From contig JAVBPW010000001.1 of NCBI GenBank assembly GCA_031549385.1, positions 320,001-384,000 of the forward strand: 64,000 bases of DNA, read 5' to 3'. The notes beneath the pieces are model-generated. The model had not been told where the DNA came from. It searched no databases and saw only the letters and a list, made by a program, of their open reading frames with translations. This document shows positions 2,411-55,362 of this stretch, one piece after another (the stretch's first letter is position 1; the number at the start of each line of letters is the position of its first letter). This DNA comes from Alphaproteobacteria bacterium (GTDB taxonomy: Bacteria; Pseudomonadota; Alphaproteobacteria; Rs-D84; SZUA-605). The position numbers and the translations under genes are program-made.

Positions 2411-2465
2411 TTGATTTTACCATATTTTTCAAGTCCTTGCAAGGTAGGGGGATTTTGCTTTTTTG

Positions 2466-2502: not shown

Positions 2503-2670
2503 GACGATGATGCTGCAAACACAGCGGAGTTGAAGGAAGAACAAAGCTTTAAGCTTTTATTAGAACCTTCCGGGTTTGCCCGATATAGCTTATCAAAGAC
2601 CAAAGTAAGGTGGCACCGCGAATCTTTCGCCCTTATAGTTATAAAATTTTAAAGAAGTTATGTAAGGAGC
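2503..2670 (+). promoter_or_regulatory. T-box riboswitch, probably translational, with ultrashort stem I
   Basis: Antiterminator-type fold AAGG-TGGCACC-GCGAA-tct-TTCGC-CCTT (2607-2634); stem II GAAGG..CCTTC; stem IIA CGGG-TTTG-CCCG; upstream of an aminoacyl-tRNA synthetase gene. Confidence 0.8.
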
Positions 2671-2675
2671 TTGTT

Positions 2676-4436
2676 ATGAACAAATATAGAAGCCATACTT
2701 GTGGGCAGTTAAATGAAACTAATATTGGTCAAAAGGTTAAACTATCTGGTTGGGTTAATCGTAAACGTGATCATGGAAATTTAGTTTTTATCGATTTAAG
2801 AGATCATTATGGAATTACTCAATGTGTTATTCAAAATAGTGATAAGAATTTTGGTGTTGTTGAAACTTTAAAACCTGAATATGTTGTTTGTATTGAAGGT
2901 AATGTTGTTGCTCGTGATGCTTCTGTTATTAATGATAAAATTCCAACAGGAAAAATTGAAATTGTTATTGAAGATATTAGTATTCTTTCAACTTCTGAAA
3001 CTCTTCCTTTCCAAGTTTCTGTTGAAGAAAAAACTGCTGAAGATTTACGTTTGAAATATAGATATCTTGATTTAAGACGTGAAAAACTTCAACGTAATAT
3101 GAAGATTAGAGATTTAGTAATTAGATCTATGAGAAAAAGAATGTGGGATTTGGGGTTTAATGAATTTCAAACTCCTATATTGACTTCTACATCACCTGAA
3201 GGGGCTCGTGATTTTTTGGTACCTTCTCGTATGCATGAAGGAAAATTTTATGCTCTTCCTCAAGCGCCACAACAATATAAACAACTTTCACAAATCGCTG
3301 GGTTTGATAATTATTTTCAAATTGCACCTTGTTTCAGAGATGAAGATACAAGAGCTGATCGTGTGTTTGAATTTTATCAATTAGATATTGAAATGTCATT
3401 TGTTGAACAAGAAGATATTTTTGCTGTTGGAGAATCTGTTATCCCAGAAATATTTAAAGAATTTGCAAATGGAAGAACTGTTGATCCTAATATCCCAAGG
3501 ATATCTTATGATGAAGTTTTGGAAAAATATGGAACAGATAAGCCTGATTTGAGAAATCCTATTATAATTAAAGATGCTTCTGAAATATTTAAAGATTCTG
3601 GTTTTGGAGTATTTGCTTCTGCTGTTGAAAAGGGACAAGTTGTTAAGGCTATTATTGCTCCAGCATCTTCTGATAAACCTCGTTCATGGTTTGATAAACT
3701 TGGGGAATTTGCTATTGAGATTGGTCTTAAAGGACTTGCTTATATGGTGTTTACTGAAAATGAAGTTAAAGGACCAGTTGCTAAGAATTTAGATCAAGAG
3801 CGAATCAATAAAATTAAAGAACTTTGTGGTGCTTCAACCGGAGATAGTATATTCTTTGTTTGTGAAAATTTAGAAGCTGCACAAAAAGCTGCTGGTAAAG
3901 TTAGAATTAGATTAGGTGAAGATTTAAATTTAATTGATAAAAATGATTTTAAATTTTGTTGGGTAGTAGATTTTCCATTCTTTGAACTTGATAGTGAAAC
4001 TGGTACAGTTGGATTTTGCCATAACCCGTTTGGTTTAAATCAAGGTGGAATTGAAGCTTTAAAAACACAAGACCCATTGACTATTAAAGCTTATCAATAT
4101 GATATGGTTTGTAATGGAGCAGAAATTTGTTCAGGTGGACTTAGAAATTTTGATCAAGAGGCTATGAAAATAGCATTTGCTATTGCAGGATATGATGAAG
4201 AAACTGTTAAAACAAAATTTTCTGCACTATGGTTAGCTTTCCAATATGGTCCTCCTCCAACAGCTGGATGTGCATATGGTGTTGATAGAATCGTTATGAT
4301 GCTTTCTGATGAACCTAATTTAAGAGAAGTTATTTTGTTCCCTATTAATCAAAAAGGACAGGATTTGATGATGAATGCTCCGATTGAGGCGACAGAAAAG
4401 CAATTACGTGAATTGCACATTAAGTTAAGAAGATAG
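2676..4436 (+). CDS. aspS: Aspartate-tRNA ligase, likely non-discriminating Asp/Asn type
   Basis: [38 protein letters not shown]; start ATG 2676 follows SD TAAGGAG. Confidence 0.96.
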
Positions 4437-55019: not shown

Positions 55020-55042
55020 TTTTGTATCCTCATAATTTTTAG

Positions 55043-55324
55043 GCGAAATATTATAAGCCGGATTCTGTACATTTGCATGCGACAATCATTTATCTTGAAT
55101 TACTGTTACCAGTAATTTCTTTGCGACCTACCACGAAGCAGTTGGGATTCCTGTAGCTTCTTATTTGGTCTTGCTCCAAGCAGAGTTTACCGCGTTTCAC
55201 CCTAACTTAATAGGCTCGTCTCTGTGGCACTTGTCCTCAGCTTGCGCTGGGTGGGTGTTACCCACTGCTTTATCCCATTGGAGTCCGGACTTTCCTCACC
55301 ATAGTGCGATTGTCCATATTTCGC
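55043..55324 (-). ncRNA. rnpB: RNase P RNA (compact)
   Basis: GAGGAAAGTCCGGACTC, GTGCCACAGA, GGTAAACTC, GGAGCAAG, ACAGAATCCGGCTTAT conserved blocks. Confidence 0.95.
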
Positions 55325-55362
55325 TATACTAACATAATATAAGATTAACATTTTTTCAAGGA

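Follow-up and report, generated by a model that had tools for sequence, protein, structure and literature searches.

We identified a T-box riboswitch of the short-stem-I type in the 5′ leader of aspS, the gene for aspartyl-tRNA synthetase (AspRS), in an alphaproteobacterial genome. The window analysed here is a stretch of 64,000 nucleotides (nt) from an Alphaproteobacteria bacterium (assembly GCA_031549385.1, contig JAVBPW010000001.1, positions 320,001 to 384,000 of the forward strand), whose genome of 931 kb in 8 contigs is 97% complete. Positions 2500-2678 of the window are the aspS 5′ leader and almost certainly form a real T-box. In our overall account, to which we assign a probability of roughly 0.6, this leader is a short-stem-I T-box through which uncharged tRNA-Asn turns on translation of aspS. 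The account builds on the T-box fold, which is conserved and covaries, and further on the position of the specifier, the match to tRNA ends and the gene content of the genome.

The aspS leader aligns with the T-box model over its full length

A reading of the window made without database searches (the sequence-only reading) had proposed a T-box at this position. An Infernal-type Rfam search of positions 2380-2720, as that reading had suggested, aligned the T-box model RF00230 end to end with positions 2498-2637 on the plus strand (model positions 1-219, 45.8 bits, E = 3.7e-9). In a search of the whole genome with RF00230 this was the only T-box match (E = 2.4e-9). The score stays under the RF00230 gathering cut-off of 93 because 2 bases stand in for 72 model positions, those of distal stem I. 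An Rfam scan of the window at the gathering threshold reports RNase P RNA and five tRNAs and no T-box; the match surfaces with E-value reporting only. The elements align in model order: a kink-turn (K-turn; CGAUGA ... GGAG), stem II with GAA-type internal loops, stem IIA, and the core AAGGUGGCACCGCG with its closing strand. The features of the leader and its gene, all on the plus strand, are as follows.

2466-2493, plus: sigma-70-like promoter, TTGAAT-16-TATAAT, 10/12 consensus matches
2504-2530, plus: ultrashort stem I (Rfam alignment, covariation)
2504-2505 paired with 2529-2530, plus: stem I K-turn, with bulge GAU at 2506-2508 and tandem G.A formed by GA 2509-2510 opposite GA 2527-2528
2511-2515 (UGCUG) paired with 2522-2526 (CAGCG), plus: stem I helix
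2516-2521, plus: stem I terminal loop CAAACA, 6 nt
2518-2520, plus: specifier AAC (Asn), with the conserved purine A2521 after it (alignment, tRNA ends)
2532-2570, plus: stem II; basal helix GAAGG 2532-2536 / CCUUC 2566-2570, distal helix 2543-2547 / 2553-2557
2537-2542 (AAGAAC) and 2558-2565, plus: purine-rich internal loops of stem II, S-turn-like
2571-2589, plus: stem IIA and F-box-like CCCGAUAUAGC; CGGG 2571-2574 / CCCG 2579-2582, loop UUUG (Rfam alignment, relatives)
2590-2606, plus: linker, short and purine-rich, AAAGU at its end
2607-2634, plus: T-box discriminator (antisequestrator); helix A1 AAGG 2607-2610 / CCUU 2631-2634, helix A2 GCGAA 2618-2622 / UUCGC 2626-2630
2611-2617, plus: T-box bulge UGGCACC, 7 nt, between helices A1 and A2
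2629-2670, plus: candidate sequestrator (putative role); GCCCUUAUA at 2629-2637 pairs with UGUAAGGAGC at 2661-2670, A2668 bulged, 9 base pairs
2676-4436, plus: aspS, bacterial-type AspRS, 586 amino acids (NF001750, 788.8 bits)

The alignment places the T-box fold with its UGGCACC bulge and the GAAGG/CCUUC helix of stem II exactly where the sequence-only reading had drawn them. It also bears out the ultrashort stem I with a K-turn-like base and AAC in the loop CAAACA, as does covariation in 21 related leaders (below). The K-turn at the base of stem I can be read from the sequence and from the Rfam alignment as a C-stem, a 3-nt bulge and tandem G.A pairs. The specifier sits in the terminal loop of stem I and not in an internal loop, and the distal stem I platform, which stacks on the tRNA elbow, is missing from the leader in the RF00230 alignment. 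The conserved T-box sequence is present as AAGGUGGCACCGCG at 2607-2620, the consensus being AGGGUGGNACCGCG (PMC11297988, cited in part), and the purine run AAAG ahead of helix A1 is retained.

Stem II and stem IIA are both present and covary, and stem IIA is followed by the F-box-like CCCGAUAUAGC. For stem IIA, the sequence-only reading had drawn the helix CGGG-UUUG-CCCG, which stands at the same position, and a pseudoknot between the loop UUUG and a downstream CAAA, for which we found no support. This partner strand (IIB) has no consistent counterpart in relatives: the 4-nt complement of the loop is absent or inconsistently placed in bacterial-aspS leaders (12 other class-A leaders examined), and in the leaders of archaeal-type AspRS genes it falls inside a probable stem III.

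Several features of the leader weigh against our account. The score of 45.8 bits is below the cut-off; relatives carry CCCGUUAYAGC at the F-box, where this leader has A in place of U (the role of the F-box is taken as in PMC7583486, cited in part); and we found no convincing stem III, the 24-nt linker being without a stable hairpin. In relatives with longer linkers a hairpin is present there. The predicted fold of the leader is of ordinary stability (single-sequence z = -0.74), and the case therefore relies on the model match and on the relatives.

Compensatory changes support the fold in related leaders

We aligned six leaders of the same architecture and, using a structure drawn by hand, built from them a model, R1. 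These leaders share an unvarying 12-nt core, GGUGGCACCGCG, in 6/6 cases. We then used R1 to align 21 leaders, referred to as class A. In this alignment standard pairs fill 91.3% of the cells, compared with 36-55% after a shift of the 3′ partners by 1-3 columns; fitting the leaders to the model structure favours such pairing counts, which counts against our account. Six rows had trained R1, and many rows are closely related; both the misaligned L136 and several archaeal-type leaders, which have a large insertion in helix A2 and are truncated there, were kept in the counts.

Both-sided changes were observed in 25/30 base pairs, and the observed values were reached by 0/500 shuffles. The covariation is contributed by stem I (compensatory changes in 6/7 pairs), by both stem II helices (5/5 pairs for both) and by stem IIA. 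The C-stem pair of the K-turn also covaries, as CG in 13 leaders, GC in 4 and AU in 3. The check for covariation in related aspS leaders, which the sequence-only reading had put forward, thus gave 25 compensatory pairs of 30 in 21 leaders. Its expectation that UGGCACC and AAC would both be conserved held for the former, within the invariant GGUGGCACCGCG, and for the NAC-A frame of the specifier; the first specifier base alternates between G and A. A chance resemblance to a T-box is ruled out by the genome-wide E-value together with the covariation.

A reduced genome of 931 kb, a sub-threshold Rfam score, the lack of stem III and a variant F-box are also what a decaying relic would show, that is, a T-box that no longer regulates after losing stem III and distal stem I. 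We regard this as highly improbable, since the same reduced architecture recurs across families with compensatory changes in 25/30 pairs, GGUGGCACCGCG does not vary among the six leaders of the first alignment, and the specifier keeps NAC-A. A short stem I is moreover a known functional form (PMC7583486, in part).

The leader is widespread in one alphaproteobacterial order

RF00230 gave a match at E<=1 in 22 of 41 genomes (the present one and 40 relatives), none of them at the cut-off. Eighteen of the 24 matches, including the present leader, lie directly 5′ of a bacterial-type aspS whose product is 56-61% identical to ours; 2 precede a paralogue of ~440 amino acids, 1 is a weak partial match, and 3 (L002, L004, L005) are full-length T-boxes with U-tract terminators before tyrS. 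These tyrS genes are of the archaeal/eukaryal type by NCBIfam NF006330 (391-396 bits) for L002 (G001) and L004 (G010), and by N-terminal similarity only for L005 (G006). L002 scores 90.4 bits against RF00230, just below the cut-off. No full-length tyrS-type T-box was found in the present genome with RF00230.

R1 finds the leader in 114/151 genomes sampled from the same order, distributed over its families as f1 1/1, f2 1/4, f3 1/19, f4 0/1, f5 108/122 and f6 2/3. With one genome per genus of the class, R1 matches 3/151 (the present genome, a second genome from its order, and G255, which belongs to a different order) and RF00230 matches 2/151. Among the 80 closest aspS loci of the species collection the leader occurs in 3 (L025, L026, L035), all Alphaproteobacteria; in the AspRS tree L025 and L026 nest in family f5 of the order and L035 pairs with G255. 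The alphaproteobacterial host named by the sequence-only reading agrees with these relatives and with the class A bacterial RNase P RNA of the window, at 55038-55325 on the minus strand (205 bits, shorter than the model, several helices reduced). Presumably this RNase P RNA also argues against a mis-binned Firmicute.

A second set of aspS leaders, class B (for example L012, L013 and L140-L152), is shorter, at ~100 nt, and without stem II or IIA. These leaders have a conserved 9-nt loop, usually ACUGACAAC, with GAC and AAC in tandem, and a conserved downstream GGGUGCC that is complementary to GGCACC of the T-box and stands ahead of the ribosome-binding site (RBS) AAGGGAC. From this arrangement, class-B leaders would seem to use another kind of expression platform. 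Directly upstream of the class-B leader, several genomes have a tRNA-Thr(GGU) gene. Separately, the archaeal-type AspRS leaders L115-L128 have a hairpin of ~30-45 nt inserted in helix A2, followed by a long sequestrator of the Shine-Dalgarno (SD) sequence.

tRNA ends and gene content point to tRNA-Asn

The two tRNA genes that matter most for the identity of the ligand are the following.

20948-21024 of the window, minus: tRNA-Asp(GUC), rival ligand, ends G-CCA
C1:15280-15354, outside the window, minus: tRNA-Asn(GUU)

The tRNA-Asn and tRNA-Asp genes both encode GCCA ends (G73-CCA), complementary to UGGC of the bulge, in agreement with the fit to G73 tRNAs such as Asn and Asp that had been proposed from the sequence. 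The loop CAAACA can alternatively be read as CAA, AAA or ACA; those tRNAs, tRNA-Gln(UUG), both tRNA-Lys and tRNA-Thr(UGU), end in ACCA. Among the codons readable in the loop, Asn alone has a G73 tRNA. The specifier AAC also obeys the 'C rule', by which the third specifier position is C (PMC7583486, in part), and precedes the purine A2521.

Profile searches of the genome detected no asparaginyl-tRNA synthetase (AsnRS) above the cut-off: the asnS model matches only AspRS (105 bits) and lysyl-tRNA synthetase (93 bits), the identity of the latter being confirmed at 616 bits. They likewise detected no archaeal-type or second AspRS and no AsnB-type asparagine synthetase. Both amidotransferase genes covered by the searches, gatB (540 bits) and gatA (596 bits), are present. 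Since there is no AsnRS, the single AspRS must charge both tRNA-Asp and tRNA-Asn, and since there is no second AspRS and gatA and gatB are present, it must make Asp-tRNA-Asn for GatCAB. This gene content indicates that the only AspRS of the genome is non-discriminating, as the sequence-only reading had supposed; its proposed check for gatCAB and a missing asnS returned gatA and gatB, and no asnS in a 97% complete genome. On this evidence we consider tRNA-Asn the likely ligand.

The tRNA-Asn gene (C1:15280-15354, minus) and gatB (C1:15494-16921, plus) are divergent neighbours, ~140 nt apart. Elsewhere, ARAGORN called a tRNA with anticodon CUA, labelled tRNA-Pyl, at C2:66723-66796 (minus) and, ~25 nt from it, an odd tRNA with a two-base undetermined anticodon at C2:66626-66697 (minus). 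Neither has an encoded CCA, and they could represent a suppressor tRNA or a false call.

The first specifier base alternates between Asp and Asn

The aligned specifier of all class-A leaders is NAC with a following A, its first base being always G or A, and class-B leaders follow the same pattern, typically ACU-GAC-AAC. We tallied the specifier in 43 bacterial-type and 15 archaeal-type AspRS leaders.

Bacterial-type aspS leaders, all: n = 43; AAC 10, GAC 33
Bacterial-type aspS leaders, class A: n = 7; AAC 5, GAC 2
Bacterial-type aspS leaders, class B: n = 36; AAC 5, GAC 31
Archaeal-type AspRS leaders: n = 15; AAC 12, GAC 3

In this tally L024, a partial match of 18.4 bits, is unassigned; L132 and L138 duplicate L015 and L013; L122 and L127 carry AAC, their downstream genes being lost at contig ends; and the loops AUUAACGAC of G035 and G139, which contain both AAC and GAC, were counted as AAC by alignment position.

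The archaeal-type paralogue scored above the cut-off of NF003483 ('aspartate--tRNA(Asn) ligase') in 6/6 proteins scanned (403-460 bits). Both AspRS types occur together in 12 genomes, where the leader of the bacterial gene carries GAC in 12/12 and the class-A leader AAC in 12/12; 11 of these AAC leaders lie directly 5′ of the archaeal-type gene, and the remaining 1 stands where a contig ends. In G076, where the archaeal-type gene is lost at a contig end, both leaders read AAC. Mapped on a tree built from the first ~200 residues of each of the 43 bacterial AspRS, the specifier label needs 7 changes, of which 5 are forced by well-supported branches. The first base of the specifier is a two-state character that has changed repeatedly, and it matches the Asp/Asn division of labour where both states coexist in one genome.

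Other aspects of this variation speak against tRNA-Asn as the ligand. The base flips between G and A even in near-identical AspRS (G050 vs G114 and G076 vs G130), so that it may be loosely constrained, or GAC may accept tRNA-Asn too through a G.U pair. The 33 GAC leaders of bacterial-type aspS also mean that AspRS genes of the order are more often wired to Asp. Twelve of them are in two-AspRS genomes and at least 21 precede a sole and necessarily non-discriminating AspRS, because their genomes lie outside the 19/151 with a second class-IIb match; L025, L026 and L035, which were covered at their aspS loci, contribute 3 GAC rows (2 of class B).

We therefore have to weigh a real T-box whose effector is tRNA-Asp or both tRNAs, either with the first base loosely read or with all R-A-C leaders reading one tRNA. 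GAC in 33/43 bacterial-aspS leaders, the at least 5 G/A flips and the GCCA end common to both tRNAs would fit this, and a purine as first base could pair with U36 of tRNA-Asn as A-U or G.U. It is nonetheless improbable: AAC would form an A.C mismatch with the GUC anticodon at the first codon base, and the clean GAC/AAC split between paralogues, 12/12 each, is hard to explain with a neutral base.

We also considered that AAC tracks the absence of AsnRS and rejected it. AsnRS is above the cut-off in 1/151 genomes of the order, yet most sole-AspRS leaders carry GAC. The single case (G011:C77:2024-3088) comes from the end of a contig in a genome that is 3% contaminated, and it may be foreign or a rare retention. 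With AsnRS nearly absent from the order, AAC is therefore not the result of AsnRS loss, and it is instead one of two wirings for a non-discriminating AspRS.

The leader may control translation

In the mechanism that we propose, the free GCCA end of uncharged tRNA-Asn would pair with UGGC of the bulge and stabilise helices A1 and A2. These helices would hold CCUU 2631-2634 off the SD sequence, allowing aspS to be translated. Acylated tRNA-Asn, whether with Asp or Asn, would be unable to dock; without docking, the T-box 3′ strand would pair with UGUAAGGAGC and mask the RBS. The switch would in this way couple AspRS synthesis to the charging state of tRNA-Asn. The bound tRNA, and translation as the control level in place of transcription or RNA stability, are what we infer from the leader, its relatives and the genome.

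We found no G+C-rich hairpin with a U-tract 3′ of the T-box, the sole terminator-like call there being helix A2 itself. The candidate sequestrator covers the SD sequence AAGGAG at 2664-2669, ahead of ATG 2676. The isolated hairpin has a predicted energy of -6.7 kcal/mol; over 2603-2690 the sequestrator state (-11.0 to -11.3 kcal/mol) and the antisequestrator state (-12.0 kcal/mol) are near-isoenergetic, and the minimum-energy structure of the 196-nt fold contains the sequestrator. Pairing of the RBS with the T-box 3′ strand reaches -10.5 kcal/mol, which is equalled by 31/492 other putative RBS regions of the genome and is thus better than in 94% of them; among the 85 RBS regions with AAGGAG, 1.2% pair as well with this strand. 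Strong SD sequestrators of -14.1 to -19.6 kcal/mol, with no U-tract, were present in 9/9 archaeal-type AspRS leaders tested, and their outer pairs differ compensatorily between lineages. The leader family therefore includes clear translational T-boxes.

Translational control is placed in doubt by two results. When the antisequestrator is forced, the SD sequence is predicted to become only modestly more accessible, its unpaired probability going from 0.05-0.43 to 0.15-0.57. Moreover, in 6/6 other class-A leaders of bacterial aspS the sequestrator is weak (-1.1 to -5.9 kcal/mol), as it is in G014 (-4.9 kcal/mol), so that masking of the SD sequence by the 3′ strand of the T-box is not conserved in the closest leaders. 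The view of the sequence-only reading that the leader has no U-tract terminator and could sequester its SD fits this locus, where no such terminator follows the T-box and the two states are closely balanced; the sequestrator does not extend with similar strength to those six relatives.

These same results would also fit a real tRNA-Asn T-box that controls transcription read-through, by a weak or factor-dependent terminator (e.g. Rho), or mRNA stability. The leaders of G002 and G118, with spacers of 138 and 172 nt containing other hairpins, fit such control, as do the classical transcriptional T-boxes with U-tract terminators that relatives carry before tyrS (L002, L004, L005). We nevertheless hold it to be unlikely, although to be taken seriously, given the missing U-tract hairpin after the T-box, the unusually good pairing of the RBS with the T-box 3′ strand and the unmistakable SD sequestrators in the homologous archaeal-type leaders. 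A short stem I also goes with translational T-boxes, in most of which stem I is of intermediate or ultrashort length and lacks the elbow-binding motif (PMC7583486, in part). For this locus we lean slightly towards control at translation.

Promoter, transcript and gene start

Transcription is predicted to start at ~2500, a few bases 5′ of stem I, the promoter ending 7 bases before 2500. By eye, TATAAT/TATAAA-like boxes were seen ~10-17 nt 5′ of stem I in L023, L003, L007, L035 and L153. RNA contigs from two runs of one study contain an identical 168-nt contig within the aspS coding region (3027-3194); they leave the leader region 2300-2900 uncovered and are uninformative on the start and on read-through. 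ATG 2676 agrees with the N-termini of AspRS homologues. An open reading frame (ORF) of 608 amino acids from GTG 2610 was rejected as the gene, its start codon lying inside the T-box and the homologue N-termini aligning to ATG 2676. A terminator-like hairpin with a T-rich tail is present at 2434-2450 (plus), between the aspS promoter and an ORF that lies upstream of it in divergent orientation (2012-2410, minus).

Discussion

T-boxes have been reported from few Proteobacteria. Wels 2008 found them in 2/125 Proteobacteria, before leuA of Geobacter and Pelobacter (PMC2494555), and Sun 2013 gave their range as Firmicutes, Actinobacteria, Chloroflexi and Thermus/Deinococcus, plus Geobacter (PMC3766115). 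The leuA cases (PMC2494555 Table 3, PMC3766115) are the only proteobacterial T-boxes that these studies report. They share this phylum-level placement with our leader and differ from it as typical elements of a biosynthetic gene in delta-proteobacteria, in contrast to short-stem-I leaders of an aminoacyl-tRNA synthetase. TBDB ran its translational (class II) T-box model on Actinobacteria only, according to part of PMC7778990, and alphaproteobacterial leaders would therefore be missing from it. Elsewhere in the Proteobacteria, a Xanthomonas SAM-I riboswitch also senses uncharged initiator tRNA (PMC7270179, in part). In the literature that we searched, we found no publication on an alphaproteobacterial T-box or on a short-stem-I aspS T-box; the supplementary taxon lists of PMC7778990 and PMC3766115 could hold alphaproteobacterial matches.

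The nearest known system is the translational ileS T-box of Actinobacteria (Sherwood, Grundy and Henkin 2015, via parts of PMC7583486, PMC7778990 and PMC11297988). As described in those parts, it shares with our leader a stem I without the distal elbow platform, a stem II with an S-turn-like loop, a stem IIA with an F-box (F-box-like in our leader), the lack of a U-tract terminator and a 3′ strand that can mask the SD sequence. Stem II, the F-box-bearing pseudoknot and the discriminator are described in PMC7583486 (in part). Compared with the ileS elements, as far as these sources describe them, our leader is alphaproteobacterial, belongs to aspS, has an Asn/Asp specifier and no evident stem III, and its SD masking is not conserved in the nearest leaders. 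Canonical transcriptional T-boxes (RF00230; Bacillus subtilis tyrS, glyQS) have in common with it the K-turn, the specifier with its purine, the 14-nt T-box sequence and the UGGN bulge that faces NCCA. It differs from them in lacking distal stem I (72 model positions) and a terminator, in its terminal-loop specifier and in its sub-cut-off score.

In Clostridium acetobutylicum, the tRNA-dependent route to asparagine is reportedly under the control of an Asn-specific T-box (Saad et al. 2012, J Biol Chem); this clostridial element is said to be a full-length transcriptional T-box in a Firmicute with redundant Asn routes. Like our leader it is keyed to tRNA-Asn and to the indirect Asn-tRNA pathway, whereas ours is the short-stem-I leader of a sole AspRS in a reduced Gram-negative genome. 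Thermus and Deinococcus have a discriminating bacterial-type and a non-discriminating archaeal-type AspRS with GatCAB (see PMC4206432). The same division of labour is found in our two-AspRS relatives, where it is written in the specifiers GAC (bacterial type) and AAC (archaeal type), unlike in the present genome, which has the bacterial-type AspRS only.

What is new here is thus the host group and the gene and specifier logic, the T-box itself being of a known kind. We think it somewhat probable that these leaders form a mini T-box family on the AspRS genes of a small-genome alphaproteobacterial lineage, in which one purine (GAC<->AAC) re-targets the switch between tRNA-Asp and tRNA-Asn. This base would have flipped at least 5 times, would be partitioned between paralogues where two AspRS coexist and would here tie the sole non-discriminating AspRS to the charging of tRNA-Asn, whose product would supply the only path to Asn-tRNA. 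If true, this would be the first T-box regulon described in Alphaproteobacteria and a set of specifier swaps made by nature on a single scaffold. A conserved alphaproteobacterial T-box family widens the known range of Firmicutes, Actinobacteria, Chloroflexi and Deinococcus-Thermus with two delta-proteobacterial leuA cases; since all its members are below the Rfam cut-off, standard annotation misses them. A core of ~130 nt for decoding and discrimination, without distal stem I and stem III, would be a compact start for structural and engineering work on tRNA-sensing RNAs. The toggling of one base between Asp and Asn on a fixed scaffold would constitute a natural experiment in the evolution of T-box specificity, and would also inform the regulation of a non-discriminating synthetase with two tRNA substrates.

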